Notes: generated by a model from the sequence alone, not told the origin. A DNA stretch of 44,962 nt from an uncultured Hyphomicrobiales bacterium (GCA_964529535.1 CAZGXC010000004.1:1-44962), one strand, 5' to 3'; shown: positions 10,192-25,420, numbered from the stretch's first letter. Made by a program: numbers and translations.

Positions 10192-10221
10192 TGTAACCTT
10201 CAATCAAATTACTGTGTCTAT
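10192..10221 (+). promoter_or_regulatory. Candidate ECF-sigma-type promoter upstream of the ECF sigma gene (possible autoregulation)
   Basis: TGTAACCTT (10192-10200), a 16-nt spacer, then TCTA (10217-10220), about 47 nt upstream of the ATG at 10267. It has the same architecture as the site at 12509-12537 and resembles the general ECF pattern: an AAC-containing -35, a ~16-nt spacer and a TC-initiated -10. Confidence 0.4.
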
Positions 10222-10266: not shown

Positions 10267-10842
10267 ATGCTTTTTAAAAAAGGAAATATTGCTCCCGCTA
10301 CAAAGGAAATGGATATAGAATCCGCTTCCCGCGAGCTTGCGCTCGGCTCAGTCGAAGCCTTTAATTTCCTTTACGAACGATACCACAAAAAGCTTTATTG
10401 GTTCTGCCTGCGGATGCTCGGCGATAGCGAAGCTGCCAAAGACGCATACCAGGACGCATTTATCAAAGTCTATGACAAGAGGAAGGAGTTCCGTGGCGAG
10501 AACTTTTCAGCGTGGCTTTTTACGATTGGTCGCAATATTTGCCTGAACGTGATCCGCGCTCGCAAGGAATACTCAGAGCTTGAAGAGGATGCGCAAATCA
10601 CCGACCACGTCCGAGAGTCTGATATAGGGATGAAGGATTTCATCAATCAATCTCTAATGAAATTACCCGTAGTGTATCGAGAAGTCTTGATCTTGCGGGA
10701 ATACGAAGATTGCTCCTATCAAGAAATAGCAGATATTTTAAATATCGACCTCTCGAACGCAAAAGTGAGAGTGCACCGAGCCAGAGCTTTGATGCGGAAA
10801 ATATTAACCCCTATTGCTAAAGAATATTATAGCGATAGATGA
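10267..10842 (+). CDS. RNA polymerase ECF-type sigma-70 factor
   Basis: Region 2 (FNFLYERYHKKLYWFCLRMLGDSEAAKDAYQDAFIKVY...FSAWLFTIGRNICLNVIRARK) and region 4 (LPVVYREVLILREYEDCSYQEIADILNIDLSNAKVRVHRARALMRK). Confidence 0.9.
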   Translation: MLFKKGNIAPATKEMDIESASRELALGSVEAFNFLYERYHKKLYWFCLRMLGDSEAAKDAYQDAFIKVYDKRKEFRGENFSAWLFTIGRNICLNVIRARKEYSELEEDAQITDHVRESDIGMKDFINQSLMKLPVVYREVLILREYEDCSYQEIADILNIDLSNAKVRVHRARALMRKILTPIAKEYYSDR

Positions 10843-10896
10843 TTAATAACCTTAGTAGATAAGAAAAAAGATAATTAATAAATAACATAGATACAA

Positions 10897-12369
10897 ATGG
10901 ATTACGAAGATTTAATATCGAAATACTTAGACGGCGAGCTAAGCCCAAGCGAAGACGAGGTGCTTCGCTCGGAAATTGCTCAAAACCCTGATTTAAAGAT
11001 GGATTTTGATGACTCTATTTTTGTGCATTATGCACTGAAAGAAGATGCAGAAAGCCTGAAAGTCCCAGAAGATTTAAAGATAAATACGCAGGACCTCGTC
11101 CTAATGAAAATAGTCGGGGATAGACCGAATATTATCAAAATGGATAATAGAATCAGTGCATTCCGCCAGTTCGCTGCAAGCGTAGCGGCTGTAATTCTAT
11201 TGGGATTCGCTAACATCAATGATTATTCAATGTTCAGGCATTTGAGTGAGTTATATACTTACCAGACGAATCAGATCAATCAGCAAATTGAATCGGAGCA
11301 AGCGATAGAAGCTAATGCAAATGCTGGAAAAGCACGCAAAAACAATAGTCGAAAAAATAATATTCGCGAGAATAAAACCACTAATAATTACAGTAATAAT
11401 TTTGGGCTTTCATCAAGAAAGATAGAAAATAAAACGCAAATAGAAGAAAGCAATAGTAATGCTGAAATCGAAGAAGTCGCTACTACATCAATCTTAATGA
11501 ATAGTAATTCCAGCAACAAGATAGAGATCCAGCAGCCAACAATTGCCGCTCCAATAGCAATGAATGTTATTGATAAACTCAAATCAAGTGAAGTATCTCC
11601 TGTTTTAGCCAAAAAAGCAGTAGCCAATACAGATGCTAAATCACAAGAAATGAGTAGATTACTTGCTGGGAATATTCAAAATAATGTGAGTGGTATTAAC
11701 GCACAAAGCTCGCACATTTCATTTGACAACAGTAATTATGCAAAGAATAATATCCGCTATATTGACGCAAACAACTGGACAAACAACAACAGATTCAATA
11801 ATACTTTAAATTCAGATCCTTTAGTCAATTTAGAAATCAACTCATATTATTCAAGCAATTCAATAAGCAACACCCTAAAAGACCCAGATACTAAACTCTC
11901 CATGGGATTCTCATACAGCATAGGATATGGCATAGATCAGAAGCATAAATTTGGCGTCGAAGTAGGAAGCATTAATCAAAGGTATACAGTGGTGGAAATG
12001 CTGCAAGTGCCGGTAACTGTTTATACAAATGATCCATCAGGTAGTGCGACTGCCCCGGGTCCAACGGTATTGATGCCATACGAAAGAAATAATTCTCTAA
12101 ATTATATTTGGGGTAGCGCATTTTATGAATACAATTTGCTGAATTATAATGATTTCGTCCTCGATGGCAGAATAAACATCGGGGCAAATAGCCTTGGATT
12201 AATGAATGTTTCGCGCCTTACAGCATCTTATCATTTGCTAAATACCGTGAAGTTCAGCGTTGGTTTGGATAATCGTATGTTTTACATCAATGATTTCTCG
12301 ATTTCAGGCACTCCTCGTAAATTGATCAACTCATTTGGCTTGGTGTATGGAATCCAGTTGTCTATTTAA
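10897..12369 (+). CDS. Putative anti-sigma factor: N-terminal anti-sigma domain, one TM helix, long N/S/Q-rich linker, C-terminal beta-barrel-like domain
   Basis: It sits immediately downstream of the ECF sigma gene. The N-terminus ISKYLDGELSPSEDEVLRSEIAQNPDL is anti-sigma (zf-HC2-like) but lacks the His/Cys ligands. The TM segment is ~aa 89-105 (FRQFAASVAAVILLGFA). aa ~120-330 are low-complexity Asn/Ser/Gln-rich. aa ~334-490 show an alternating amphipathic pattern (LSMGFSYSIGYGI, KFGVEVGS, YIWGSAFYEYNL, VKFSVGLDNRMFYI, FGLVYGIQLSI). Confidence 0.6.
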   Translation: MDYEDLISKYLDGELSPSEDEVLRSEIAQNPDLKMDFDDSIFVHYALKEDAESLKVPEDLKINTQDLVLMKIVGDRPNIIKMDNRISAFRQFAASVAAVILLGFANINDYSMFRHLSELYTYQTNQINQQIESEQAIEANANAGKARKNNSRKNNIRENKTTNNYSNNFGLSSRKIENKTQIEESNSNAEIEEVATTSILMNSNSSNKIEIQQPTIAAPIAMNVIDKLKSSEVSPVLAKKAVANTDAKSQEMSRLLAGNIQNNVSGINAQSSHISFDNSNYAKNNIRYIDANNWTNNNRFNNTLNSDPLVNLEINSYYSSNSISNTLKDPDTKLSMGFSYSIGYGIDQKHKFGVEVGSINQRYTVVEMLQVPVTVYTNDPSGSATAPGPTVLMPYERNNSLNYIWGSAFYEYNLLNYNDFVLDGRINIGANSLGLMNVSRLTASYHLLNTVKFSVGLDNRMFYINDFSISGTPRKLINSFGLVYGIQLSI

Positions 12370-12508
12370 CAAAAAATTAAGCAAAAATTCAAAATAGTGC
12401 ATTTATTTCCCAAAAATTCCTTATATTTGAAATTCTGAAAAATTTAGTAATATGCAAAGTAGAAGAAAAGTAGCAATAACAGTAATAACAATGATGAAAG
12501 GCAATGGA

Positions 12509-12538
12509 TGAAACCTTGTTTCGCACTTGAAAATCGAG
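12509..12538 (+). promoter_or_regulatory. Candidate ECF-sigma-type promoter upstream of the TonB-dependent receptor operon
   Basis: TGAAACCTT (12509-12517), a 16-nt spacer, then TCGA (12534-12537), about 156 nt upstream of the ATG at 12693. It matches the 10192-10220 site at 11 fixed positions with identical spacing. Confidence 0.4.
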
Positions 12539-12575
12539 CAAATTTAATCCCAACCATATAATCATCGACTTAATG

Positions 12576-12605
12576 CTTATCCAAAAAAACAATAATTTGG
12601 ATAAG
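12576..12605 (+). promoter_or_regulatory. Leader hairpin in the 5' region of the TonB-dependent receptor gene
   Basis: Perfect 10-bp stem CTTATCCAAA (12576-12585) / TTTGGATAAG (12596-12605) with a 10-nt loop. It is followed by a weaker GTAT.GC...GC..ATAC hairpin and ATTTTTA (~12607-12635). It lies between the candidate promoter and the ATG at 12693. Confidence 0.4.
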
Positions 12606-12692
12606 GTATTGCTATTTATAGCGGATACATTTTTAAGAAATAAACATAATTTATTAAACATAAATATTAATATTAATACAAAAGGAGCATTT

Positions 12693-15600
12693 ATGCGAAA
12701 ACTATTATTAGTTTTATTCCTTGGGTTGCTAATGTTACCAATCGCAGCACAAGCTGCTAACTATGGCAATTTAAGAGGAAGAATCGTAGATGTAGGCGAA
12801 GACCCAAAGCAGGGCGCTTATATCTCGGTAGTAGGAACTAAATTGGGCGCTATCTCTAAGAAAGATGGTAAATTCAATGTAGTTGCTATTCCGGTGGGTA
12901 GTTATGAACTCCTAATTTCTTATCTCGAGTCAGAGACTCGCGTAAACTTTTCAATCTCGGCAGACGAGAATAAAGATTTAGGCGACATCGTTATCTCCCT
13001 AAAAGGTGATACTGTATTCGTAGATGGAAATAAAATGGGAGCAGTCGATAAGACTAAAATTGGCGATGGTATCAGCATCTCCAAAGACCAAATTACCTCT
13101 ACCACAAAGACGGACATCGCTTCATTAGTCGGTTCTAAAGTCGGCGTGCAGAATACTGGCGACGGTTTCTCTATTCGTGGTTCTAGAAATAGTGAGACAT
13201 CACTAAGATTAGACGGCGTCGAGATCTCTAATCCATTAAACGGTGGATACGGAGCCGGCGGAACATCTTATTACCCAATGCCTTCTACGCTTAATATCGC
13301 AGAAGTCCAGGTAATAACAGGTGGATTCTCCGCTGAATACGGCGAGGCAATGGGCGGCGTGGTAAACCAATCAATGGTTTATGGTAATAACAAAAGATAC
13401 GACGGAGCTTTCCAATGGAGAAGCAATATCGGAGCTTTATATGGCTCTACTAAAAACTCATTAGGTCTAGAAGAAAGAGACGGAATATTAAGAGCATATA
13501 ACGCTGGCGATGGCTATCAATTAAAGCCAGCTTCGAATAACTACTTTGATTTTGCAATCAATGGTCCAATGCCATTTACTGGCGGAGACATCGTATTCTC
13601 ATTAAGTACAACATATAATACTACAAGCGGTAACTCTTCTTATGGAATAAAAGATCCATTAGGACAAGACGTATCTAACCGCGATCATAATAACAGCTGG
13701 GTAAAGAGAATTGACTTCAGAAGCCAGATTAACATGATCAAAGACGTTGAGATCTCCCTCGGAGCATCTTATGGTATTACAAGCATCGAAAGCAATGATT
13801 GGAACTGGAGCTTATCTACAATGAAAGGTCAAGGAACTAACTTGAATTTAGATGGCGGTATCGCTAATAACTTCATCGGCGTTTCTGAGAACTTAGCAAA
13901 GCAAAACGTTGTCAATATTAAAGTAATGAACTTCTTAGCAAGAGTAAAGCAAATTTTCCAAAATGCTAGCTTTTATCAGTTAACATTATCATATAACCAA
14001 AATGATGATGATAATTCAAGAAGAATCAACATGGACGGTCCAAGCTTCTTCACTGGTTTCGATGTATTAAAGCCACAAAACTTATACATGATCCAAGAAA
14101 CAGGCGGACAAAAAATCCCAGTAAAATCAGAATTAGTAGATCAATACTTAGATCATTATGCTAAATTTACTAACATGAGACAATCAGCAGATGGATACTA
14201 TAATGCAGATATGCCAATTATTAATCCATTCACTGGATACTATGAAGGTGGCGAAGGCTCTAATACCAACAACCCTTATGGATGGTACACAAGTGGCTTC
14301 GTAAAACACGGATCTGACGGCGGTTTACAATTCAGAAGAACATTATACTATCAAGCAGATGGTTTCTATGATATTTCAATAGATGATGATAAAGTAACTC
14401 ACAATATCAAAACAGGATTTGAAGTAAGAAAATATGAAGTGCATAGACACTCCAACTCAGCACCTTGGAACGAGTTAAGCGGTTTCGACGTATTCTCTGA
14501 CCAATGGGGCGGCAATTTGTATATTCCACCAGTGGACGTAACAAATCCAGCCAACACTCCAAACTTCAAATATGCAAAAGAACATACAAGCAAGCCATTC
14601 TCTCCATTTAGAGGAAGCGTTTATGTCCAAGATCAAATTAGATATAAAAATATCGTATTTACTCCTGGCTTAAGATTAGACTACTTCAACGCAAATGGTG
14701 ATTATAGAACTAACATGAGCAAATATACAAGAATTTATGAACGCCAATACTTCGCTCCAACAGATGCAAACTTCTACGTGAGCCCAAGAATCTTCGTTAC
14801 ATATCCATTGACAGAAGCATCAAAAATCGATTTGTCTTATGGTTTATTCTTGAAAACTCCTGAATTACAGTATCTATATGATAGATTTAACGCTTGGACA
14901 ATCAGCTCTGGTCAAGTAATTGGTAACCCAAATATGAAACCACAGAGATCAAGCCAATATCAAGTATCTTATGAAAACTACTTGACTGAAGACCTGAACT
15001 TAAATATCACAGCATATTATAAAGATATTTACAATCAATTAGGCGTAACTTACGTAATGGCTACTCCAATACCTTTCTACGTATACAGCACAACTGAATA
15101 CGGTAGCAGCAAAGGATTAGAGTTCTCTTTAACTAAAATGCCAACAGACAATATTTATGCTTCATTGAATTACTCAATAGCAATGAATAAGGGAACTTCC
15201 GCTGGACCAACAAGTAATATGAGCAGACCTACTGACCCATATACTGATAAGTTAGCATTCCCATTAGCAGAATTTAACATGAACAATGACGTGCGCCATA
15301 CAGTAAATGCATCATTAGCATTTATGTGGGGCAATAATGATGGACCAGAATTATTCGGAATCCAACCATTAGAAAACGCAAGCATTAACTTCGACGCAGT
15401 TTATCGCACTGGATATCCATACACAAGATTCAAACGCTCTGGCGAGCCAATTTCAGACTTCAACGAAGTTCGCCAACCAGACTTCTGGAGATTAGATATG
15501 AGATTATCAAAGAGATTCATTTTAGCTGATTGGTTCGGCGATGCAATGGGCAAAACAGCTATCGAAGTATTCGTAAACGTTTATAACATATTAAACAGAA

Positions 15601-15920
15601 GAGTGCCAACATCACTCAACGGAATCACTGGCGATCCAGACGATAACGGAAGAAGCTACTATCTAAAAGTAACAGATCTATATCAAACTACTTTATATGA
15701 TAAAGCAAATCCAGCGCAAGCAAATACATTCTCTGTAGTGCAATACGATGGATATGGAGACAGATTATACACTCCACAAGCAGACTTTAACAAAGATGGA
15801 TTAGTAACATCTGACGAACAATTCCAAGCATATAGAAATTATCTATTGGATATGGGACAAATGAGAGGCAATTATCAGGCTCCTAGAACAGTGAATTTTG
15901 GTATTAAAATTAATTTCTAA
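12693..15920 (+). CDS. TonB-dependent receptor, SusC-like architecture (carboxypeptidase-regulatory-like domain + plug + beta-barrel)
   Basis: Start moved from the ORF-track 12573 to ATG 12693. That ATG is preceded by AAAGGAG (12681-12687) and yields the signal peptide MRKLLLVLFLGLLMLPIAAQA. N-terminal GRIVD...FNVVAIPVGSYELLISY (CarboxypepD_reg-like). Plug-like block GDGFSIRGSRNSETSLRLDGVEISNP...VITGGFSAEYGEAMGGVVN. Ends ...RTVNFGIKINF (terminal Phe). Confidence 0.85.
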   Translation: MRKLLLVLFLGLLMLPIAAQAANYGNLRGRIVDVGEDPKQGAYISVVGTKLGAISKKDGKFNVVAIPVGSYELLISYLESETRVNFSISADENKDLGDIVISLKGDTVFVDGNKMGAVDKTKIGDGISISKDQITSTTKTDIASLVGSKVGVQNTGDGFSIRGSRNSETSLRLDGVEISNPLNGGYGAGGTSYYPMPSTLNIAEVQVITGGFSAEYGEAMGGVVNQSMVYGNNKRYDGAFQWRSNIGALYGSTKNSLGLEERDGILRAYNAGDGYQLKPASNNYFDFAINGPMPFTGGDIVFSLSTTYNTTSGNSSYGIKDPLGQDVSNRDHNNSWVKRIDFRSQINMIKDVEISLGASYGITSIESNDWNWSLSTMKGQGTNLNLDGGIANNFIGVSENLAKQNVVNIKVMNFLARVKQIFQNASFYQLTLSYNQNDDDNSRRINMDGPSFFTGFDVLKPQNLYMIQETGGQKIPVKSELVDQYLDHYAKFTNMRQSADGYYNADMPIINPFTGYYEGGEGSNTNNPYGWYTSGFVKHGSDGGLQFRRTLYYQADGFYDISIDDDKVTHNIKTGFEVRKYEVHRHSNSAPWNELSGFDVFSDQWGGNLYIPPVDVTNPANTPNFKYAKEHTSKPFSPFRGSVYVQDQIRYKNIVFTPGLRLDYFNANGDYRTNMSKYTRIYERQYFAPTDANFYVSPRIFVTYPLTEASKIDLSYGLFLKTPELQYLYDRFNAWTISSGQVIGNPNMKPQRSSQYQVSYENYLTEDLNLNITAYYKDIYNQLGVTYVMATPIPFYVYSTTEYGSSKGLEFSLTKMPTDNIYASLNYSIAMNKGTSAGPTSNMSRPTDPYTDKLAFPLAEFNMNNDVRHTVNASLAFMWGNNDGPELFGIQPLENASINFDAVYRTGYPYTRFKRSGEPISDFNEVRQPDFWRLDMRLSKRFILADWFGDAMGKTAIEVFVNVYNILNRRVPTSLNGITGDPDDNGRSYYLKVTDLYQTTLYDKANPAQANTFSVVQYDGYGDRLYTPQADFNKDGLVTSDEQFQAYRNYLLDMGQMRGNYQAPRTVNFGIKINF

Positions 15921-15957
15921 TAAATTGAGTAATTTAATTAAATAAATAGAGGCTTTT

Positions 15958-18900
15958 ATGCAAAACAAAATAAAGCTGTTAGTTGTTGGTGCAATCCTTA
16001 TGTTCTCGTGGGCATTAGCAGGATCTTTATATGCTCTGCCACAGAACTATAAAAAAACAGATGATACCGAACAATTACAAGCAGAATCAAAAAGAATACA
16101 GCAATTGTATGACGTCCGCAAAAACACGGTAAGTAATATACAATTCTATACATCAAATTATGGAATATTCGGATTTGACGTAGCCCGAAGCCGTGGCGCT
16201 GGCTACTGGCCCCGTGGCTCCTTAAATCAATATATTTTCGCTGGTGGTATCTGGTTCGGTGCGCAGAAATTGCACCCAGATTCAACTGGTCAGTTAGCTC
16301 CGAAAAAATATGTATCTTTAACATACAATCCAAACTCAGCACAATCTTGGATGGTGCCGGGCAGAATCTTCGATTATAATGGCAACGAGCAACTCCTTGC
16401 CAATGAAGACGACGTATGGTTATACAGAACATATATTTCTACAGAATTTAACCGCTCTACTGGTAAACCATACAATGCTGAAGAAAAATATGCTTGGCCA
16501 ATATGGGATACTGAATCAAAAGATTCTGGTTACGTGTTGAAATATGATAGATATTTTGGTAAATTCGTAAACAACCCAGCAGATAGAAATACTGACAAAT
16601 ACAAAAAAGGTCCAGCTTTCGTATCAGAAGAAGATATTTTCGCTTCATTCAAAGATACAGACTTAAATAAATATCAAATCGGTGCTGGTAAAGCAAGAGA
16701 AGATGGATATCCATTGAAAATGCAATACGAGCAAATGATTTACTCTTGGGGCTTCGGTGAATATAAAGACTTTATCTTTATCAAATATGATATAATCAGT
16801 ATGTCCAAAGATACACTCCGCAATTGCTGGATGGCTCCTATCATGGACGTAGATATTGCACGCTCTCCTTATACAGATGCGGGTGCACAAAATGATAGAG
16901 TGAAATATTACAAACCAAAAGATTGGGAAGACCAACCAGATAAAAAAAGCGTTCAAGATACATTGAACTTAGCGTTCCAATGGACAATGAATAACCAAGG
17001 CGAAGACGGAAAAGGCTTCGGTTACTTGGGATACGACTTCTTGGAATCTCCATCTGTCCATAAAGCAGTAGGCGAAGTAGAAGTAATTGAAAACGATAAA
17101 AAAGTAATGAAAAATTGGATGTGGAGCACTTTCCACGAAGTAAAGAAAGGGCAATACTTACCAAATTCAAACCAAAGAGCAGAGAACGATACAATTATCG
17201 GTATTACTAAATTAGTATATGATAAAGCACTTGAAGGCTTCGTAAGAAAAGATAAAAGATATTATGAAACTATCGAGCAATTAGGTTTGGTGTCGTTCAG
17301 AAACTGGAACATTTCAGAAGATAAGCACACAGCAGATGAGCAGTATAACTTCCTTTCTGATATCGGTCCTAACGGCTATTACAGAGATGGCGATACTGGT
17401 CCTGGTGATAAGAGATTTATGATGGCGACTGGACCATTCTCAATGCTTCCAAAAGATACAGTGCGCGTAGTGGTAGGTATTATCTTAGCATTACCAGCTG
17501 TTCAACGCGAAGCAGACGGTTCAGAGGAAGACGTTGCGAATCTAAAGAGACGCGATATGTTCGCTCAGAAAGTATATGATAACCACTTTAGAGCACCAGC
17601 TCCACCAGAAAATACACGTTTCTTGGGATACAAATCATATAACAATGCAATAGAAGTATATTGGGATTCAACTGCCGAAATGTCTTATGATCCAGAAGAA
17701 AGAGGATTAGACTTCATGGGCTATACCCTATATAGAGCAAGAGACCCACTATTAGATACATTTAACGTAAATAAAGTACAAGCAGACGATAAATATGCAA
17801 AAGGTAGAGGACCATTCGGCTGGAAACGCGTAGAATCTTGGCAAATGCCTTCTCCTTATATTCAAACAGGAATTATGCCAACACCTGGTGATAATAAAAT
17901 ATACCCAAGTATTGATGATTTCGAAATCGTAGGCCTTGGTTTCGAGGGTGATAAAATGGACACAATGTCTATCACTATCATGAAGAGACCAATGGGATTC
18001 GTTACGATATCTGCAAAAGATAGAGCTACAATGAATGATACAGCAAAATATGCTACACCTACTATTCACGGTTTCTATCCCGATACAAATAATCCAAATC
18101 CATGGGTTAAGTATTTAATGAAATTCTGGGATAACAACTTAAAGGATGTTCAGCTTGATCCATTAAAATCATATAAAGCGCAATATCCTAACAACGTGTT
18201 CTTGGATAACATTCTAATGGCAAAAGTAGTTCTTAATCAAGCCTTGGTAAGCTACAACCCATTGTTCTATGTAGAAGAAACAGTTCCTGCTTATGGCTAT
18301 ATGCAAGAAAAGCTAAAAGATCAACAAGGTAAAGACTCTTTGGGAGCACTTACTCGAATTGACCTGACTCCTGAAAACATGAAGGATGAAGCTCTTCAAA
18401 AGAAATTAGTTAGCCAATACAGAGCGAATCCAGAAGATGGATATTATATATTCTTATATAACACATTTAGACCAATCGAGATAAATGGTAATGTAAAATA
18501 TTATCTAACAAGAATGAAACCTCTATGGAATACTAAACCAGAGAGCTGGGCTAATATTTTCAAAAACGAAGAATGGCTAAGATACGCAAAAGGAAAATTC
18601 ATTGAGTTCATGCAAAAAGGTATGGTAAATGATGTCATTATCAATGATAGCTTAGTTTATGATGCCGGACGTGCAGCAGTGATTGAACCATATATGACTA
18701 AGATTACAAACGGTAGAAAATACTATGATTTCGCTGACGATGGCAATAATAACAAAGTAGTTGAAACAAGTGATAACTCTGCATTAACAGAGAGAATACT
18801 AAACAATATCGATTACTACTACAAACTCGAAGCATACGATGAGGGTGATTACTTACAACCAACAGAATCTAAGAAAAATGACGGTTCTAAGGGCAGAAGT

Positions 18901-20904
18901 AACAACATCTTGGCTTATGCAAAAGCAGGTAGACCAGACGATAACGTTGAAATTGAAATCACTAAAGTTGACTTTGAATTAATGGGCGGATTGAGAAACT
19001 TCAAATTCTTCACAATTGACCCTGACAGATTGAACCAAAAATTAGCTGGTAAATCATTGAAATTAAAATTAGAGCCATATTCATATATTTCTAAGGTTTC
19101 TGTCCCAGGAAAAACTGGTAAGCAATCAGAATCAAAGGATATAGCTTTCTATCAAACAAAATTCACATTAACTGATTCAGCTACAAATGAAGTGTTATTC
19201 AATTCTGTAATTAGATACACAGATGGACAAACAGATTCATATATGAATTTATTAACAGAGAATGGTTTTACAGTCTTAATGAGCGATACAGTATTAGACA
19301 AAGTATCAAACGTTATGAGCGAGTTCGGAAAACCAGAAAATACTGACAAATTCATCAAACGCGGTTCATACACAACTGGTAGATTTAACGTCCCTGGTTA
19401 CTCAGAATCATACGCTTTCACAAACGGATATGAAAACATCTTTGGATTCTCATTTGATTATGGATTCGAGCAACACGGTGGTGTAATTAGATCTCACAGC
19501 ATCGAAAAAGTAAACAATAAAAACGCTTCTACAATAGTATCTACTTTGAAAAATAGAAGCTTAACTCACGATCCAAATAAATTCGGTGACCAATGGGATT
19601 ACGCAGGAACTCAAATTACTGACGTAAGAGCAAGCTTAAATAATTATCAAAGCGCTCCAATGTATATGGCATTCCCTAAAGGCGTTGGATTCTTACCAGC
19701 AAAGAGTGGTGTGCCTAAACAATATAACTTAGGACCAGCGGATTACCAAATTACATTCAAAGAAGGTGGACGCGAAAACATCACTGTTTCATATAACAAT
19801 TCAGAGCCAGAAACAAGCACTGAAGTAACATTCGATGTTCCATACCTTACATACGAAGTTAAGAACGTATATAATGTAGATATCCAATATCCTAATTCTA
19901 AAGAAACAGTAAAATACGGATTCAATTACGAACCAATGGTATTACCTGAGACAATGAACTGGGAACCATTCACTGGAGTAGTTTCTTCAGTAAATGACAA
20001 GGGAGAAGAAGTATTGACTACAAGAAAAGTAGACATGGCGAAAGCATTCCCACACCCAAGCAATCTAAAGAGCGACGCTACTAATTTTATGGGTAAATTT
20101 AACACATTCGCAGTAGCTTACGTAAACTCTAGAAACAAAGCACTTGGTAGACCACAAGACTACAAGAACACAATCGCAGTAGAAAAAGGCAAATCATATA
20201 TCAATGATGCTCCAAATATAATTGGTAAGCAAAACAGATATTACATGTCTGCTACAAATGGCGATGCTACAATTGACTTTGTAAACGTATTGGATATAAG
20301 CGGTGCATTCTTCTTCTTAGATTATGCTCAAATGGGTAGATTCATCAAAAAAGCAGAAGAATTCCACTGGGAAGTTCCTAACGCAGATCAGAAACAATAT
20401 GGCGAAGACTTCAAAGCAGGCGATCAATTACTTGCTAAAGTTCGCGGTGGTGTATTCGGTCTTCCAATGGCGGGAGCAGAAGTTCACGCAAAAGTGAAAC
20501 CAATAGTTTCTGATAACTATACAGCAAGCCAATTAAGCAGAGTGAAAGTAGTGCCAAATCCATATTATATTTCGCACGAAGCACAGAAATCTGCTTACGA
20601 TACTAAGCTTTACTTCACAAAGTTACCAAAAGAATGCAATATAGACATATTCACAATCAATGGTGATTTAGTAAGATCAATTAAGCACGCACCAACTGAA
20701 AAAGACGACGACTTTAACTCTGGAGAAAGCCACACTGAATTCAGTAGCTACAAATTTGCAATGGAACCTTGGGACTTATACAGCTCAAACAACCAAAGAG
20801 TGCAGAGCCAGACGTTTATAGCATTAATTACGACTCCAAACGGAGAAAAACAAACAGTAAGATTCTCAGTATTAGTTGGTAGCACTAGATTGGTAACTGA
20901 CTAA
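15958..20904 (+). CDS. Large (1648 aa) secreted protein of unknown function with a T9SS-type / FlgD-Ig-like C-terminal sorting domain
   Basis: The signal peptide has no lipobox Cys (LVVGAILMFSWALAGSLYALPQ). The last ~125 aa (nt ~20527-20901: VKVVPNPYYIS...CNIDIFTINGDLVRSIKH...EPWDLYSSNNQRVQSQTFIALI...) fit the PNP(F/Y)...I.I(F/Y)...G.LV(R/K)....WD pattern of T9SS CTDs. The rest matches no family I recognise. Confidence 0.75.
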   Translation: MQNKIKLLVVGAILMFSWALAGSLYALPQNYKKTDDTEQLQAESKRIQQLYDVRKNTVSNIQFYTSNYGIFGFDVARSRGAGYWPRGSLNQYIFAGGIWFGAQKLHPDSTGQLAPKKYVSLTYNPNSAQSWMVPGRIFDYNGNEQLLANEDDVWLYRTYISTEFNRSTGKPYNAEEKYAWPIWDTESKDSGYVLKYDRYFGKFVNNPADRNTDKYKKGPAFVSEEDIFASFKDTDLNKYQIGAGKAREDGYPLKMQYEQMIYSWGFGEYKDFIFIKYDIISMSKDTLRNCWMAPIMDVDIARSPYTDAGAQNDRVKYYKPKDWEDQPDKKSVQDTLNLAFQWTMNNQGEDGKGFGYLGYDFLESPSVHKAVGEVEVIENDKKVMKNWMWSTFHEVKKGQYLPNSNQRAENDTIIGITKLVYDKALEGFVRKDKRYYETIEQLGLVSFRNWNISEDKHTADEQYNFLSDIGPNGYYRDGDTGPGDKRFMMATGPFSMLPKDTVRVVVGIILALPAVQREADGSEEDVANLKRRDMFAQKVYDNHFRAPAPPENTRFLGYKSYNNAIEVYWDSTAEMSYDPEERGLDFMGYTLYRARDPLLDTFNVNKVQADDKYAKGRGPFGWKRVESWQMPSPYIQTGIMPTPGDNKIYPSIDDFEIVGLGFEGDKMDTMSITIMKRPMGFVTISAKDRATMNDTAKYATPTIHGFYPDTNNPNPWVKYLMKFWDNNLKDVQLDPLKSYKAQYPNNVFLDNILMAKVVLNQALVSYNPLFYVEETVPAYGYMQEKLKDQQGKDSLGALTRIDLTPENMKDEALQKKLVSQYRANPEDGYYIFLYNTFRPIEINGNVKYYLTRMKPLWNTKPESWANIFKNEEWLRYAKGKFIEFMQKGMVNDVIINDSLVYDAGRAAVIEPYMTKITNGRKYYDFADDGNNNKVVETSDNSALTERILNNIDYYYKLEAYDEGDYLQPTESKKNDGSKGRSNNILAYAKAGRPDDNVEIEITKVDFELMGGLRNFKFFTIDPDRLNQKLAGKSLKLKLEPYSYISKVSVPGKTGKQSESKDIAFYQTKFTLTDSATNEVLFNSVIRYTDGQTDSYMNLLTENGFTVLMSDTVLDKVSNVMSEFGKPENTDKFIKRGSYTTGRFNVPGYSESYAFTNGYENIFGFSFDYGFEQHGGVIRSHSIEKVNNKNASTIVSTLKNRSLTHDPNKFGDQWDYAGTQITDVRASLNNYQSAPMYMAFPKGVGFLPAKSGVPKQYNLGPADYQITFKEGGRENITVSYNNSEPETSTEVTFDVPYLTYEVKNVYNVDIQYPNSKETVKYGFNYEPMVLPETMNWEPFTGVVSSVNDKGEEVLTTRKVDMAKAFPHPSNLKSDATNFMGKFNTFAVAYVNSRNKALGRPQDYKNTIAVEKGKSYINDAPNIIGKQNRYYMSATNGDATIDFVNVLDISGAFFFLDYAQMGRFIKKAEEFHWEVPNADQKQYGEDFKAGDQLLAKVRGGVFGLPMAGAEVHAKVKPIVSDNYTASQLSRVKVVPNPYYISHEAQKSAYDTKLYFTKLPKECNIDIFTINGDLVRSIKHAPTEKDDDFNSGESHTEFSSYKFAMEPWDLYSSNNQRVQSQTFIALITTPNGEKQTVRFSVLVGSTRLVTD

Positions 20905-20922
20905 TTAAATAATAAATCCGTT

Positions 20923-20944
20923 CAGCTGCCCAAAAGGGCAGCTG
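20923..20944 (+). terminator. GC-rich hairpin after the 1648-aa gene (weak terminator or processing site)
   Basis: 9-bp stem CAGCTGCCC (20923-20931) / GGGCAGCTG (20936-20944) with an AAAA loop. No T-tract follows, and the next gene starts 41 nt later with its own GGAG. Confidence 0.35.
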
Positions 20945-20984
20945 GGCTGATATAATTTAATAATAAAATGGAGATTATTTAAAT

Positions 20985-22034
20985 ATGAAACAATTTATTC
21001 ATATCATTATAATTGGAATTGCTCTAACATTTGCATCAATTAGTATTCAAGCAGAAGACACAAAAGGTTTAGATAATACCGTTGGATCTTCAAAGGGTGA
21101 ATACAAGAAAGTTGGTGCTGCAGGCTCGCAATTCTTGAAAATTCCAGTAGGAGCGAGAGGTGCAGCAATGTCTGCAAACGTCGCTGCCGTTAATGACATT
21201 TCAGCTATCTGGTGGAATCCCGCTGGATTAGCATCGGTGAAGACTACTGGTGGTTATTTCGCTAACACATGGCTTTTTGCAGATTTTAACCAAATGTTCG
21301 CGGCAATCTCATTGCCTATTTCAAGTGATTTCACAGTAGCAGCTTCGCTAAATTCATTCACCTCTGGAAACATTGAATTTACAAGCTTGCACCAAGACCA
21401 AGGTAACAAGCACTATTATCAAGTGTCTGATATGTCCGCTGCATTATCTGTAGCTGGAAATCTAACAGAAGATTTCGCTTTCGGAGTGAATATGAAATAT
21501 ATATATAATTCATTCTCTTCTCTTGAAAGCAGTGCATTTGCATTCGACGTAGGAACTCTTTACAACACAGGGTTATACGGTATTAAAATTGCATTCGCAT
21601 TATCAAATCTTGGAACAGATTTACAATATAGAGGACAAGATTTAGCTACATTAGCACCACTCTTAAAAGATATGGGTCTTGCTCCAATCGATGCAGAATT
21701 TAAAGCTGGATCATACACAATGCCGCTTGTATTTAGAGCTGGTTTAGCTTCAGAGGTCTTTAAAAATGAAGATCACGCAGTTACTGCAGCATTTGACTTT
21801 ATTACTGCTTCTGACGTTCAAGAGCAATTCGCTATCGGCGCAGAATATACGTTTAAAGACTTAATCGCAATTAGAGGCGGATACCAAATTAACCATGACC
21901 AATATGGTCTATCCGGTGGTATCGGATTTAAATATGAAATGGGTGGCGGACTTCACGCTGCTGCTGACTATTCTATCAATCCTACAAAAAGCTTAGGATT
22001 AGTAAATAGATTAAGCATTAGATTCGGATTCTAA
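20985..22034 (+). CDS. PorV/PorQ-family outer-membrane beta-barrel (PorV-like)
   Basis: Signal peptide. GAAGSQFLKIPVGARGAAMSANVAAVNDISAIWWNPAGLA matches the conserved N-terminal PorV/LptO block. Alternating beta pattern. Ends ...RLSIRFGF. GGAG lies 10 nt upstream. Confidence 0.7.
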   Translation: MKQFIHIIIIGIALTFASISIQAEDTKGLDNTVGSSKGEYKKVGAAGSQFLKIPVGARGAAMSANVAAVNDISAIWWNPAGLASVKTTGGYFANTWLFADFNQMFAAISLPISSDFTVAASLNSFTSGNIEFTSLHQDQGNKHYYQVSDMSAALSVAGNLTEDFAFGVNMKYIYNSFSSLESSAFAFDVGTLYNTGLYGIKIAFALSNLGTDLQYRGQDLATLAPLLKDMGLAPIDAEFKAGSYTMPLVFRAGLASEVFKNEDHAVTAAFDFITASDVQEQFAIGAEYTFKDLIAIRGGYQINHDQYGLSGGIGFKYEMGGGLHAAADYSINPTKSLGLVNRLSIRFGF

Positions 22035-22058
22035 TAATTTCATTATTTTTTCGTAAAT

Positions 22059-22095
22059 TGCCGTCGAGTATTTGTATGCTCGACGGCATTTTTTT
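22059..22095 (+). terminator. Rho-independent terminator
   Basis: Perfect 10-bp stem TGCCGTCGAG (22059-22068) / CTCGACGGCA (22079-22088) followed by T7 (22089-22095). Confidence 0.85.
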
Positions 22096-22116
22096 AATTA
22101 TAAACATAGTAATTAT

Positions 22117-23481
22117 ATGAAATATAAAAAGATTAGCTTAATAATTATTAGCCTTATCATTTCTGCGATTGGAATAAAAGCAGATGATTTCGGATTTAAA
22201 TATGAATTATTAAAGCTACAAAATAGCGGAGATTCAACTGAAATATTATTTAATTTCTCTTTTCCTCAAAATAAAGTAGAATTTGCGAAGCAAGGCGAAT
22301 ATTATGTCTCTAATTTAGAACTAATGTTATACCTGAAAAGTAATTCCGATACCATAAGTAAGCTATGGGAAATGTCGACGCAAGCAATAAACCCAGCAGA
22401 AAAAATGAACTTAATGTTTATTGGATCAAAAAAAATCACTGCTAAAAATGGGGAATATTCTGGCGAGATATGGCTAACTGATAAAAATGCCAATAAAACG
22501 AGTAAGTTTGAGATTAAAACATTGTCTATTCCAAGAGGGAAAAAGAATCATATCAGCGATGTGGTATTAGCCATCGATATTAAGAGAAAAGAAGAAATAG
22601 CAGGCGGGATTAATCCAGATTTCGATAGAAATGGATATTATATTCTGCCAAATACAAATGATGAAATTCAGGGAACAAAGCCAGAAATTATAGCATATAA
22701 TGAAATATATAATATACAAAATATTTCGGCATTAACATTTCAATATAATATATTAAATGGTGCGAAATCAAAGGTAATGACGGAAGCAATCAAGATAAGT
22801 AGCGATACAAGTGTTTATGCAAAATTCAATTTAGATACATTGCCAAGCGGCTTATACTACGTCGAAGCTCTTTTGCAAAATGATAAAAATCAAACAATAG
22901 AGAAAAGACAGAAGAAAATATACCTAATCAACCCTAAGCAAAAACCAAGTATTAATGTATATTTTAGTGAAGATGAAGCTTTTGAGAAAAGCGAATTTTC
23001 TACATTCAGTGAAGAAAAATGCGAAGAAGAATATAAGTATATTAATCTGATTGCTTCGAAAAATGAAAAAGAGCTATGGAAAGACATTACTGACCTAAAA
23101 GCAAAGCAAAAGTTCTATTTTAGATTTTGGGAGAACAGACGCACGGATCATAGTAGCTTAGTTAATCCAGCAAGGGAAAACTTTAAGGATAGGATAATTG
23201 AGGCGAGGAAATATTATAAAGAATTAAACAATGATGACCTATCGGATAGAGAAAAAATATATATTAAATACGGCAAGCCGATAGAAGTCCAGACAAATAC
23301 AGCCCAAGATGGGAATAGAGCATACCAAAGCTTTTTCTATTCTGATTTATACGGTGGGGCGCATTTTTACTTTGTTGATTATAAAGGCAATGGCGTGTAT
23401 ATGCTAGTGCATAGCACGATGACGGGCGAAATTCAGAACTATGATTGGGAAACACGCTTCTTAAAAGATTATAAACAATGA
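22117..23481 (+). CDS. GWxTD-domain-like protein (motif degenerate)
   Basis: Start moved to ATG 22117 (MKYKKISLIIISLIISAIGIKA signal or anchor), because the ORF-track start at 22072 lies inside the terminator stem. The C-terminal block FWENRRTDHSSLVNPARENFKDRIIEARKYY...DDLSDREKIYIKYGKPIEV...FYFVDYKGNGVYMLVHS follows the GWxTD-domain layout (FW..rDp...N...f..Ri..A...f...GWxTDRG..YI.YG.P......F.F.D..G.G.Y.L.HS). DLSD replaces GWxTD. Confidence 0.6.
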   Translation: MKYKKISLIIISLIISAIGIKADDFGFKYELLKLQNSGDSTEILFNFSFPQNKVEFAKQGEYYVSNLELMLYLKSNSDTISKLWEMSTQAINPAEKMNLMFIGSKKITAKNGEYSGEIWLTDKNANKTSKFEIKTLSIPRGKKNHISDVVLAIDIKRKEEIAGGINPDFDRNGYYILPNTNDEIQGTKPEIIAYNEIYNIQNISALTFQYNILNGAKSKVMTEAIKISSDTSVYAKFNLDTLPSGLYYVEALLQNDKNQTIEKRQKKIYLINPKQKPSINVYFSEDEAFEKSEFSTFSEEKCEEEYKYINLIASKNEKELWKDITDLKAKQKFYFRFWENRRTDHSSLVNPARENFKDRIIEARKYYKELNNDDLSDREKIYIKYGKPIEVQTNTAQDGNRAYQSFFYSDLYGGAHFYFVDYKGNGVYMLVHSTMTGEIQNYDWETRFLKDYKQ

Positions 23482-24386
23482 ACCTAAAATATAAATATTC
23501 AATCACATATTTCATTGCGATTATTGCCGGGAAATTACTTCGCTTATTTCCTCTGAAATTCAATGTAATTGCATCAAAGCTCTTTATCCGCTTAGTTTAT
23601 CCATTGTTAAATAGCCGGAAAAAAGTAGCGATTAATAACCTAAAAGCAGCATTCCCAGATTATGACGATGAGCAAATAAAGAAAATCGCCTATAAATCAA
23701 TAGAAAGTCTTGGCATAACATTTATGGAGCTGTTTTACTTGCCCAAAATGAGTCGCGAAGAAGTCATGAAATATGTAAAATTTGAAAATCCTGAGCTACT
23801 AATAAACTTATATAAAGAAGGTAGAGGATTGTTGCTATTATCCGCTCATTATGGTAATTGGGAATTTATGGCATTTGCCGGCGCCTATCATTTAAATATT
23901 GATATGCTGATACCTGTGAAGCTTCTAAAAAACTGGTTCGTGGATAGAATGGTAAATAAAATAAGAACTGCAAATGGGAATAAAATTGTAAATATGGACC
24001 GCGCTGCCTTCGAAATGCTAAAGCAATTGAAATCAGGGAAAGCAGTTGCCCTTCTGGCGGATCAATCTGCACAGGAAGATACAGATGTTTTCGTTAGTTT
24101 ATTCAATAGACCCACCCTTACATATAAAGCTCCTGCGGAATTAGCATTGAAATATAATATCCCTTTGACTATTAATTTCTGCGAGAGGCAAGATGATGGT
24201 TCGTATATAATAAAGTCTGAAGAAGTGAAGCACGACGACCTCGAATTAAATCGAGACGCTATTTTAGAATTAACGCAAAGGCACGTCTCTATGCTCGAAA
24301 AGCAGTTAATTAAGAATCCAGAACAGTGGGCGTGGGCGCACAAAAGATGGAAGCATCAGCCAAAAAATGAAATGCCAAACAGATAA
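23478..24386 (+). CDS. Lipid A biosynthesis late acyltransferase family protein (LpxL/HtrB-like)
   Basis: LLLSAHYGNWEFMA (the H.GNWE catalytic block) and VALLADQSAQEDTDVFVSLFNRPTLTYKAPAELALKYNIPL. The start overlaps the previous stop (ATGA at 23478-23481). Confidence 0.8.
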   Translation: MNLKYKYSITYFIAIIAGKLLRLFPLKFNVIASKLFIRLVYPLLNSRKKVAINNLKAAFPDYDDEQIKKIAYKSIESLGITFMELFYLPKMSREEVMKYVKFENPELLINLYKEGRGLLLLSAHYGNWEFMAFAGAYHLNIDMLIPVKLLKNWFVDRMVNKIRTANGNKIVNMDRAAFEMLKQLKSGKAVALLADQSAQEDTDVFVSLFNRPTLTYKAPAELALKYNIPLTINFCERQDDGSYIIKSEEVKHDDLELNRDAILELTQRHVSMLEKQLIKNPEQWAWAHKRWKHQPKNEMPNR

Positions 24387-24397
24387 GAGCAGATCAA

Positions 24398-25420
24398 ATG
24401 AAAGATATAATACACGATGAAGTAAAAAATATAATAGTGATACAAACGGCGTTTATCGGAGATACTGCCTTAGCTTTGTTCTTCTGTTACAACATTAAAA
24501 TTCTGTTCCCAAATGCTAAAATCACCTTTATTAGCACCCCTGTAGCGGCATCTCTAATTAGATCATGCACCATCATTGATGATTGCATCGCCTTTGATAA
24601 AAGGAAAGAATACAAGAAAATAAGAGATGTAAAGAAATTCGCAGAGAAAATCAATGAATTAAAGCCCGATATAGTCTTCTCTCTTCATAGATCATTGCGG
24701 ACATCTATATTAGTGAAGAATATTAATTCAAAGAAGAAAATTGGATTTTCCAATGCCGCAATGTCCTCCGTTTATGACATTAAATGCTCATATTATAATT
24801 ATCAGCACGAAACCCAAAAGAACAACCAATTGCTGAAGCCATTTGGATACACTGAAAGTGACGAATATCCAATATTGAATTTCAATGGGGAGAGTGAAAT
24901 CGACGGAGCTGACCAGAGTAAAGAATTAATATATTTGTCGCCGGGTTCGGTCTGGGAAACAAAACAGTGGATACCCGAATATTTCAATAAAGTAGCTAAA
25001 GAATTAGAAAACTTAGGATATCAAGTCGTGATTGGAGGAAGCGACAAAGAAATTGACTTGTGTAGCTTTGTGGCGAATGGCACCAATGCGATTAACATTG
25101 CTGGAAAGTTGAAATTAAACGAGACAATCAACGTCATCAAAAAGTGCAAATTAGTAGTCTGCAATGATAGCGCTGCTACGCACATGGCAGGTTTGGCGGG
25201 TATAAAGTGCCTCAGTATTTATGGAGCAACATCGGAGATTTTCGGTTTCTATCCAATTTCGCATGGGGCTAAGACGATAAAAAATGAGCAGATTAATTGC
25301 TCGCCATGTGCCATACACGGAGAAAGAAAATGCCCCTTGGGACACTTCAAATGTATGAGAGGCTTAGCACCAGAGACGGTAATGGAGCGAATAGCCGAAA
25401 TGTTAAAAGAAACGAATTAA
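24398..25420 (+). CDS. Glycosyltransferase family 9 protein (LPS heptosyltransferase-like)
   Basis: IIVIQTAFIGDTALAL..., LSPGSVWETKQWIPEYF, LVVCNDSAATHMAGLAG, and a C-terminal Cys-rich CSPCAIHGERKCPLGHFKCM. Starts 11 nt after the acyltransferase gene. Confidence 0.85.
   Translation: MKDIIHDEVKNIIVIQTAFIGDTALALFFCYNIKILFPNAKITFISTPVAASLIRSCTIIDDCIAFDKRKEYKKIRDVKKFAEKINELKPDIVFSLHRSLRTSILVKNINSKKKIGFSNAAMSSVYDIKCSYYNYQHETQKNNQLLKPFGYTESDEYPILNFNGESEIDGADQSKELIYLSPGSVWETKQWIPEYFNKVAKELENLGYQVVIGGSDKEIDLCSFVANGTNAINIAGKLKLNETINVIKKCKLVVCNDSAATHMAGLAGIKCLSIYGATSEIFGFYPISHGAKTIKNEQINCSPCAIHGERKCPLGHFKCMRGLAPETVMERIAEMLKETN

Follow-up and report, generated by a model that had tools for sequence, protein, structure and literature searches.

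A conserved gene triad of TonB-dependent receptor, predicted type IX secretion cargo and PorV-family barrel in Ignavibacteria and Kapabacteria

The receptor, BIG and PorV-family barrel genes

We analyzed a 44,962-nt stretch of DNA (GCA_964529535.1, CAZGXC010000004.1:1-44962; hereafter the window) recorded under the name of an uncultured Hyphomicrobiales bacterium, and within it a cluster of eight plus-strand genes at 10267-25420. The cluster encodes an extracytoplasmic function (ECF) sigma factor, an anti-sigma-like protein, a TonB-dependent receptor, a 1648-aa protein referred to here as BIG, a PorV-family barrel, a GWxTD-domain protein, an LpxL/HtrB-family acyltransferase and a family 9 glycosyltransferase (GT9) (Table 1). 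The receptor, BIG and barrel genes form the triad that is our main subject. All eight open reading frames (ORFs) were confirmed in the order given by an initial annotation, whose spacing (gaps of 54, 323, 37, 80 and 82 nt, then a 4-nt overlap and an 11-nt gap) is reproduced exactly with starts at 12693 and 22117. These are the two start codons that required a choice, the alternatives being 12573 for the receptor and 22072 for the GWxTD protein. ATG 12693, found 6 nt past AAGGAG and opening a signal peptide (MRKLLL...), is the most likely receptor start, and ATG 22117 (MKYKK...) that of the GWxTD protein. The window is AT-rich, with a GC content of ~37%. The sequence covered comprises these 45 kb of the source genome and 25-kb loci of its relatives.

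Table 1 Positions of genes, domains and signals in the window, counted from its first nucleotide
Feature	Position	Strand	Remarks
ECF-type promoter motif, TGTAAC-N17-TGTCT	10192-10219	+	48 nt 5' of sigma start; sole match in the window
ECF sigma factor, 191 aa	10267-10842	+	Sigma70_r2, r4_2, TIGR02937
Anti-sigma-like membrane protein, 490 aa	10897-12369	+	weak zf-HC2; adjoins sigma
TAnnTTTG box, TATATTTG	12422-12429	+	in the 323-nt gap before the receptor
TonB-dependent receptor, 1075 aa	12693-15920	+	CarboxypepD_reg and Plug
BIG, 1648 aa	15958-20904	+	predicted secreted, mostly beta, undescribed family
BIG N-terminal conserved domain, aa 45-604	16090-17769	+	
BIG C-terminal domain, ~aa 1525-1641	20530-20880	+	VVPNPY...LP..C.I.IFT..GDLV...H...W.L...
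PorV-family barrel, 349 aa	20985-22034	+	NF033709
Intrinsic-terminator-like hairpin and T7 run	22059-22098 (hairpin 22059-22088)	+	13-bp stem, 7 GC pairs; between PorV-like and GWxTD genes
GWxTD-domain protein, 454 aa	22117-23481	+	TIGR04514
LpxL/HtrB-family lipid A late acyltransferase	23478-24386	+	PF03279
GT9 (heptosyltransferase-family) glycosyltransferase	24398-25420	+	PF01075
Canonical Por_Secre_tail cargo with SprB repeat	279-1334		
PorQ-like barrel	2278-3219		NF033711 207 bits, cut-off 220
BamD	4486-5241		outside the eight-gene cluster
PorE-like PD40/CarboxypepD_reg/OmpA protein	7663-9132	-	lacks the N-terminal part of the model

The receptor has the architecture of a TonB-dependent barrel with a CarboxypepD_reg extension: a signal peptide, the N-terminal extension, a TonB-box-like motif (TxxVxVxA), a Plug domain and a barrel that ends in ...GIKINF. 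CarboxypepD_reg and Plug were detected in the window protein and PF00593 in 11 of 27 receptor orthologues, and the receptor profile matches the N-terminal regions of PhuR and SusC in the PDB. No STN domain was detected in the receptor, and neither the window protein nor any of the 27 orthologues of the class matched the Oar-like barrel model PF25183 at E<=0.01. No SusD-like lipoprotein is encoded 3' of the receptor; the gene found there is BIG, which has neither a lipobox nor a SusD domain.

BIG carries a leader of the signal-peptidase-I type without a lipobox Cys, which bears out its initial description as a non-lipoprotein. It gave no Pfam, NCBIfam or PDB sequence match, and a 23-sequence profile searched against the PDB gave none either. 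We found 422 homologues, mostly full-length (1466-1838 aa, 33-66% identity among those listed), all of them named 'hypothetical'. In the 23-sequence alignment ~150 residues are invariant, and no invariant Cys/His pair was found outside the C-terminal domain (CTD). AlphaFold2 was run on two overlapping pieces of BIG, aa 1-1150 (pLDDT 81.7, pTM 0.65) and aa 900-1648 (pLDDT 80.0, pTM 0.76), and both models are confident and mostly beta. A fold search with the N-terminal 1150 aa returned only matches of low TM score (0.14-0.23), to the beta-sandwich-containing families GH94 and GH116; with such scores and a mostly beta-strand model we did not assign BIG to the glycosidases, and the modeled piece can be described as a large beta-sandwich and no more than that. 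BIG was rejected as a known enzyme or a known type IX secretion system (T9SS) part, as it has no profile or PDB sequence match and the PorU and PorZ models are unmatched.

BIG combines a Sec signal peptide with an extreme C-terminus that is homologous to canonical type-A CTDs of the T9SS. When 22 BIG-family C-termini were aligned by hhalign with canonical Por_Secre_tail domains, 14 in number and drawn from the same loci, the two profiles matched over 86 columns with a probability of 97.1% (E 7e-11), and BLASTP to canonical CTDs gave E values of 8e-6 and 5e-4. The sole confident PDB fold match of the aa 900-1648 model in Foldseek is PorZ of the Porphyromonas gingivalis T9SS (5m11; probability 1.0, 141 columns). 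The BIG CTD takes a beta-sandwich fold in this model, with part of the domain modeled at low confidence and a disordered insertion inside it. Since BIG-type CTDs carry an insertion of about nine residues following PNPY, they are missed by the standard CTD hidden Markov models. These comparisons identify the C-terminus of BIG as a divergent type-A-like T9SS sorting domain that forms a distinct subclass.

The third gene of the triad encodes a barrel of the 14-strand type ending in ...SIRFGF. Its score against NF033709, the model of the PorV/PorQ family, is 170.3 bits (cut-off 90), in agreement with its initial naming as PorV-like, and its profile matches Flavobacterium johnsoniae PorV (6h3i_F) at 4.9e-16. 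Its scores lie under the equivalog cut-offs for PorV (NF033710, 71.4 vs 250 bits) and PorQ (NF033711, 72.1 vs 220 bits). It shares 23% identity with the product of the PorQ-like gene in the same window and is clearly distinct from it.

Occurrence of the triad within and beyond Ignavibacteria/Kapabacteria

The source organism is a member of the Ignavibacteria/Kapabacteria branch of Bacteroidota. BIG shares 66% identity with its closest homologue, and the matches that carry a name come from metagenome-assembled genomes (MAGs) of Ignavibacteria or Kapabacteria. When one genome per GTDB species was scanned, relatives turned up in 204 stretches, from which 80 loci were taken and searched by tblastn with the eight window proteins. 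The receptor gene lies directly 5' of BIG in 78 of the 80, the two exceptions starting inside BIG, and the PorV-like gene lies directly 3' in 74, the six exceptions ending at a contig end. The order receptor-BIG-PorV-like barrel is kept in all loci having enough flank. Sigma and anti-sigma genes were found 5' in 60 loci and adjoin the triad in ~60 of the 62 with upstream flank. On the 3' side, 60 loci have GWxTD, 58 have LpxL and 47 have GT9, and the GWxTD-LpxL-GT9 block comes next in 60 of the ~65 loci with flank. The genes beyond the block vary among loci, which argues that the block is kept by selection rather than by general synteny, and its conservation across 80 species-level genomes places the arrangement far beyond chance.

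In 39 loci a protein of ~650 aa with a canonical CTD is encoded between the anti-sigma and receptor genes (e.g., L003:4822-6768). The lineage of the window lacks it and has the 323-nt spacer (12370-12692) at this position. The ~650-aa protein matches FlgD_ig/CTD proteins of other phyla weakly and in its C-terminal region only.

Many MAG records with an Ignavibacteria/Kapabacteria-type cluster (L007, L009, L011, L012, L015, L018 and others) are titled 'uncultured Hyphomicrobiales', 'Chloroflexota', 'Desulfobulbaceae' or 'Chloroherpeton'. On such MAGs these titles look like wrong labels or contaminated bins.

Homologues of the PorV-like barrel (1145 at E<1e-10) were traced to contigs named Calditrichia, Zixibacteria, WOR-3, KSB1, Chlorobi and Ignavibacteriales, and triads of the same order were found in at least five lineages of the Fibrobacterota-Chlorobiota-Bacteroidota (FCB) group. 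The receptor, middle protein and PorV-like barrel measure 1006, 1099 and 330 aa in Zixibacteria (L087), 1004, 1076 and 323 aa in WOR-3, with one extra gene inserted (L088), and 991, 1059 and 329 aa in a lineage-unassigned contig (L093). In a Calditrichia-type contig (L086) the receptor is cut by the contig start and is followed by proteins of 1073 and 338 aa. In Calditrichaeota (L092) a receptor of 822 aa and a barrel of 338 aa enclose three ORFs of 132, 665 and 212 aa, the latter two matching the middle-protein family. Three further triads lie in peptidase loci of Ignavibacteriales (L089), an unassigned lineage (L090) and KSB1 (L091) and consist of receptors of 818-837 aa, middle proteins of 637-925 aa and barrels of 331-333 aa.

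Across these triads the receptors are mutually homologous, as are the barrels, and the window receptor shares 26-31% identity with the receptors of other phyla (E down to 4e-41). All middle proteins have in common the BIG N-domain (hhalign probability 98.3% for Zixibacteria and 98.5% for the Calditrichia-type protein) and the special C-terminal domain (BLASTP against BIG, E 2e-8 to 9e-15). The receptors of triads in other phyla match the Oar-type model PF25183, and these triads are found without sigma, LpxL and GT9 genes. The triads of L089-L091 are flanked by genes for an RpiR regulator, peptidases of families M20, S51 and M14, a CTD-bearing S51 peptidase, and DcuC-type transporters; by this gene content they are predicted nutrient-utilization loci resembling polysaccharide utilization loci (PULs). 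In L086, L088 and L093, CTD-bearing proteins including M6 and S8 peptidases are encoded 3' of the triad. Taken together, the proposal in the initial annotation of a unit of transporter, T9SS-tagged partner and PorV-like barrel describes a real arrangement, conserved in the 80 loci and in other FCB phyla; BIG has no match to a characterized enzyme family, and the gene order extends well beyond this genome.

The N-domain also occurs outside triads. An exhaustive search yielded 874 representative clusters at E<=1e-3, many of them stand-alone proteins of ~510-590 aa, and the domain is predicted to be an autonomous, unannotated module found in T9SS cargo. Among the stand-alone relatives listed, identity to the window domain ranges from 36 to 54%. 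Two stand-alone proteins at a greater distance, L082:12419-13990 (minus strand) and one in L084, bear a canonical CTD.

Regulators, transcription signals and lipopolysaccharide genes around the triad

The sigma factor matches Sigma70_r2 (8e-18), Sigma70_r4_2 (7e-16) and TIGR02937 (103.6 bits, cut-off 42.9) and consists of regions 2 and 4 only, the make-up of an ECF sigma factor. The neighboring protein scores 19.8 bits against zf-HC2 (PF13490; gathering threshold 22.2), a weak match that recurs in 12 of 26 orthologues at E<=0.1, and its location beside the sigma gene and its single membrane helix are consistent with the zf-HC2 anti-sigma family. An N-terminal zf-HC2-like region is followed by one hydrophobic helix (~aa 92-110) and a low-complexity linker of 200-250 aa, which joins this inner-membrane helix to a conserved C-terminal domain of ~170 aa (~11800-12366). 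In the alignment the latter domain has eight amphipathic strands with alternating hydrophobic residues and an end in the style of outer-membrane proteins (...IYGxQFxF). It gave no Pfam or PDB match, and hhalign against hand-entered OmpA and OmpX sequences detected no similarity; from its strand pattern and end motif only, it looks like a small outer-membrane barrel. Were this barrel to sit within the outer membrane, a single polypeptide would reach across both membranes.

An arrangement of ECF sigma and membrane anti-sigma genes that adjoin a TonB-dependent receptor gene, with an apparently autoregulated sigma factor, resembles FecI/FecR/FecA. It differs from that system in the absence of FecR and STN domains and of an ECF-type promoter before the receptor, and the anti-sigma protein, unlike FecR, ends in the domain resembling a small outer-membrane barrel.

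Three kinds of transcription signal divide the cluster. The ECF-type motif (TGTAAC-N15-19-TGTCT) occurs within 200 nt 5' of the sigma gene in 57 of 60 related loci, and was not found before the receptor or any other cluster gene in the window or in these 60 loci. The TAnnTTTG box in the gap before the receptor corresponds to the -7 element of Bacteroidota primary-sigma promoters. In 48 of 60 loci such a box, mostly TATATTTG, lies at most 200 nt past the anti-sigma stop (25-100 nt in most cases), compared with 20% of shuffled and 17% of coding controls; it is a candidate for a separate housekeeping-type promoter of the receptor operon. Terminator-like hairpins stand at the junction of the PorV-like and GWxTD genes in 33 of 60 other loci, compared with 0 of 59 GWxTD/LpxL, 0 of 48 LpxL/GT9 and 4 of 79 receptor/BIG junctions. 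The most economical reading of these signals is that the cluster comprises three transcription units, namely sigma-anti-sigma, (CTD protein)-receptor-BIG-PorV-like barrel, and GWxTD-LpxL-GT9, with possible read-through from the ECF promoter into the downstream units. The sigma factor appears to be autoregulated and to form the first unit with its anti-sigma protein, and the pair may regulate the triad. The initial statement that all eight genes are under envelope-stress control finds no support, given an ECF motif before the sigma gene only and a TAnnTTTG box of the receptor operon's own.

The hairpins after the PorV-like gene share the stem (A)TTGCCGT...ACGGCAA(T) across distantly related species (the window, L011, L012, L014-L019, L029, L039, L042, L048, L050-L052, L064, L065, L068 and L080). 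Such sharing is not usual among simple intrinsic terminators, and the stem may be the sign of a conserved element, either an RNA or a protein-binding one. A scan of the window with Rfam found nothing, and thereby no riboswitch or known RNA in the intergenic gaps.

The GWxTD protein has a signal peptide and matches TIGR04514 (46.6 bits, cut-off 28), and its homologues are precomputed as PF20094. Its profile has no PDB match, and its name was absent from the literature searched, of which coverage was limited. The LpxL start overlaps the GWxTD stop in an ATGA at 23478-23481, as expected from the translational coupling initially noted, and overlapping or abutting ends are common in related loci. 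LpxL matches PF03279 (1.4e-46, 159.5 bits vs 22.3) and reaches 159.7 bits against its best NCBIfam equivalog (cut-off 248); GT9 matches PF01075 (4.5e-31, 108.5 bits vs 22) and stays under the cut-off of TIGR02195 (111.9 vs 134.6). Five loci with at least 6 kb of 3' flank wholly lack GWxTD-LpxL-GT9, and in one Kapaibacterium subgroup unrelated genes replace GT9 after LpxL.

Outside the class GWxTD proteins were found in two settings. One is a tandem pair that follows lon (L082, L084); the other is a fusion of tetratricopeptide repeat (TPR) and GWxTD parts, without LpxL, at the 3' end of the triad cluster in Calditrichia-type contigs and L093. We therefore rejected GWxTD as a generally lipopolysaccharide (LPS)-linked family. 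GWxTD genes are found near the triad in three lineages including Ignavibacteria/Kapabacteria, and have LpxL and GT9 as companions only in Ignavibacteria/Kapabacteria. A link between GWxTD and the triad is plausible, and the LPS-tailoring link of the triad looks lineage-specific. The simplest reading makes LpxL and GT9 housekeeping LPS genes, since LpxC-FabZ and LpxA are encoded in the same window. The initial inclusion of GWxTD and LPS enzymes in the unit thus survives in part: GWxTD recurs near the triad in two other lineages, but LpxL and GT9 are missing there, five loci lack all three genes, and a hairpin stands between them and the triad.

The tandem GWxTD genes directly follow lon and an HSP20 gene in another lineage (L082:5188-7547, L084:6958-9263). 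Such neighbors hint at a part in protein quality control and not in LPS.

The window holds T9SS-related genes 5' of the cluster, namely those for a canonical CTD cargo, the PorQ-like barrel and the PorE-like protein, which indicate that the source organism possesses a T9SS. Lipid A genes flank the cluster on both sides. LpxC and FabZ are fused in one ORF of 466 aa (5323-6723), followed by LpxA, and BamD is encoded just 5' of this ORF. Farther 3', a plus-strand ORF of 4014 aa (28392-40436) has no Pfam or NCBIfam match and no recognizable CTD at its end; 5' of it lie genes for a phage tail collar domain protein of 381 aa (27178-28323, plus strand) and a LuxR-type response regulator. Two further plus-strand ORFs of 716 and 686 aa (40520-42670 and 42891-44951) have no Pfam or NCBIfam match.

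A possible type IX-dependent uptake complex and other explanations

We give an even chance to the reading that the region consists of three adjacent units and that the triad encodes a SusCD-like uptake complex with a partner delivered by the T9SS and held by a PorV paralogue. In this mechanism BIG would cross the inner membrane via Sec, and its variant C-terminal sorting domain would direct it to the type IX translocon. There the sorting domain would be bound by the cognate PorV paralogue encoded next door, and not by the general PorV. The CTD would stay uncleaved, as in PorZ-PorQ, PorU-PorV and type-B CTD/SprF pairs, and the barrel would keep BIG on the surface. Surface-held BIG would then act as the substrate-capturing partner of the adjacent TonB-dependent transporter, in the role of SusD or RagB. 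Dependence on the T9SS, retention of the CTD, physical association with the receptor and import as the direction of transport are inferred. As to the substrate, paralogous triads occupy loci for peptide utilization, and the N-domain of BIG bears a weak likeness to the beta-sandwiches of sugar enzymes.

Each part of this reading has a relative among known systems. Like SusC/SusD and RagA/RagB, the triad couples a receptor with a CarboxypepD_reg-type extension and Plug to a gene directly next to it for a large, predicted surface partner, and some paralogous triads lie in PUL-like loci that also encode secreted hydrolases, regulators and transporters of the inner membrane. ECF sigma/anti-sigma pairs flank some Bacteroides PULs. 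The triad differs in that BIG is not a lipoprotein, lacks the SusD-like TPR fold and carries a T9SS sorting domain, in that a PorV-family barrel gene is always third, and in that the receptor is without a SusC/RagA model match; the anti-sigma protein has no FecR domain, nor does the receptor have a detectable STN domain.

A closer likeness for the BIG-barrel pair is offered by PorZ-PorQ, PorU-PorV and type-B CTD proteins with PorP/SprF, where the gene for a CTD protein adjoins that for a PorV-family or FadL-like barrel; the fold of the BIG CTD matches PorZ. PorV carries type-A substrates, and alternative carrier proteins anchor type-B T9SS substrates (PMC10994853). In PorZ-PorQ and PorU-PorV the CTD is retained, PorZ being held by PorQ, and cognate PorV-like barrels have been proposed in a review to protect CTDs from cleavage (PMC10202324). 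The pair differs from these systems in that BIG is no known T9SS component, its type-A-like CTD subclass escapes PF18962 and TIGR04183, the barrel lies under the PorV and PorQ equivalog cut-offs, and the two are always coupled to a TonB-dependent receptor. A FadL-like barrel also holds a surface protein in the beta-barrel assembly machinery complex of Bacteroidota, where the 14-strand barrel BamG retains the large surface-exposed BamH via extracellular loops (PMC12578637). Unlike BIG, BamH belongs to the lipoproteins, and BamG binds BamA; neither a CTD nor a TonB-dependent receptor is present (PMC12578637).

Several observations weigh against an uptake complex. The receptor has no match to the SusC/RagA family model in the NCBIfam search, so that the initial label of 'SusC-like barrel' stands for its architecture and not for its family. 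BIG gave no match to PF18962 or TIGR04183 at E<=0.01, nor did any of 23 family members at E<=0.1; the T9SS-type sorting domain initially assigned to it is upheld by profile-profile and fold evidence and not by these two models. The fold search with the N-terminal part of BIG yielded low-TM matches only. The eight-gene cluster contains no peptidase, glycosidase or inner-membrane transporter and gives no hint of a substrate. BIG is strongly conserved, at 36-66% identity over most or all of its length, and in the 80 genomes looks single-copy at the level of loci, which would suit a housekeeping protein of the envelope no less than a binding protein for a specific nutrient. If the genome has no canonical PorV, the barrel would be the general shuttle rather than a dedicated one.

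An unlikely alternative makes BIG a structural surface protein, such as an adhesin, an S-layer-like coat or a sheath, that is held on the PorV-like barrel, with a receptor that is unrelated or serves Oar-like export. Oar is a TonB-dependent transporter needed for the secretion of PopC in Myxococcus xanthus, and it shares with the triad receptor CarboxypepD_reg, Plug and a large barrel. The PF25183 matches of receptors in related triads speak for this alternative, as do the chain of beta-sandwiches in BIG, its remote fold neighbors, which include the S-layer/adhesin proteins SbsB and MpAFP, all at low probability, and the many stand-alone T9SS cargo proteins of ~510-590 aa that carry the N-domain with no visible link to a transporter. 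However, the window receptor falls short of PF25183, and Oar has neither a T9SS partner nor a PorV-like neighbor. The strict adjacency of receptor and BIG across phyla points to a joint function, and full-length conservation with ~150 invariant residues (23 sequences) is rare for adhesins and coat proteins.

We assign a similarly low probability to the triad being a lineage-specific part of the secretion and attachment machinery of the T9SS, in which BIG would be a PorU- or PorZ-like protein on the main PorV, and GWxTD, LpxL and GT9 would supply or modify LPS for the cargo. The adjacency of porU and porV in Bacteroidia is a precedent for such a pair, and PorZ is the sole confident fold match of the C-terminal half of BIG. 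The high conservation and apparent single copy of BIG per locus would also suit a machinery component, as would the PorQ-like, PorE-like, BamD, LpxC-FabZ and LpxA genes that share the window and the GWxTD-LpxL-GT9 block next to most of the triads with flank. Paralogous triads within peptidase/transporter loci that have their own regulators would, however, be unexpected for core machinery, and BIG matches neither the PorU nor the PorZ model and lacks an invariant Cys/His pair in the sequence before the CTD. The receptor has a TonB-box-like motif and a Plug, and the LPS genes are set apart by the hairpin and missing from the triads of other phyla.

The model of the initial annotation, in which the eight genes together make up a single self-contained unit of transporter, anchored partner, shuttle and LPS functions co-expressed under ECF envelope-stress control, is very unlikely: the eight-gene order in most Ignavibacteria/Kapabacteria loci, the short gaps with coupled GWxTD and LpxL, and the sigma/anti-sigma genes adjoining nearly every triad with upstream flank are in its favor, but the ECF motif confined to the sigma gene, the housekeeping-type box before the receptor operon, the hairpin past the PorV-like gene, the five loci without the LPS-side genes, the subgroup without GT9 after LpxL, and the triads of other phyla without sigma, LpxL and GT9 argue against it.

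None of the parts is new in kind, since TonB-dependent receptors, T9SS CTDs, PorV-family barrels and ECF pairs are all known. Pfam, NCBIfam and the PDB contain neither their combination nor the CTD subclass nor the N-domain family of BIG. We found no description of the triad, the BIG family or the CTD subclass in the literature, papers on 'PorV-like' proteins included, within a limited coverage, and the triad is seemingly undescribed so far.

SusCD-type transporters account for nutrient capture in Bacteroidia, and to our knowledge little is known of the TonB-transporter equipment of Ignavibacteria, Kapabacteria, Calditrichota, Zixibacteria, WOR-3 and KSB1. Tentatively, and at somewhat less than even odds, we suggest that FCB bacteria outside Bacteroidia possess a class of SusD-less TonB complexes with type IX cargo, in which cognate PorV barrels would read the cargo's own subclass of sorting domain and retain the cargo on the cell, as a 'CTD-carrier code', and many paralogous cassettes may exist per lineage. 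One cassette, kept universally in Ignavibacteria/Kapabacteria, would be wired to a two-membrane ECF anti-sigma protein, with GWxTD as a recurrent component. If this is true, two major envelope systems of Bacteroidota that are usually treated apart would become linked, and the triad would be a testable case of cognate PorV-like barrels deciding between cleavage and retention of the CTD. Two protein families overlooked by current domain libraries, the N-domain of BIG and the variant CTD, would be defined, and several hundred representative clusters now called 'hypothetical' in environmental genomes would gain a better annotation. Further leads are the anti-sigma protein, with what looks like an outer-membrane barrel, and the GWxTD protein that keeps recurring.

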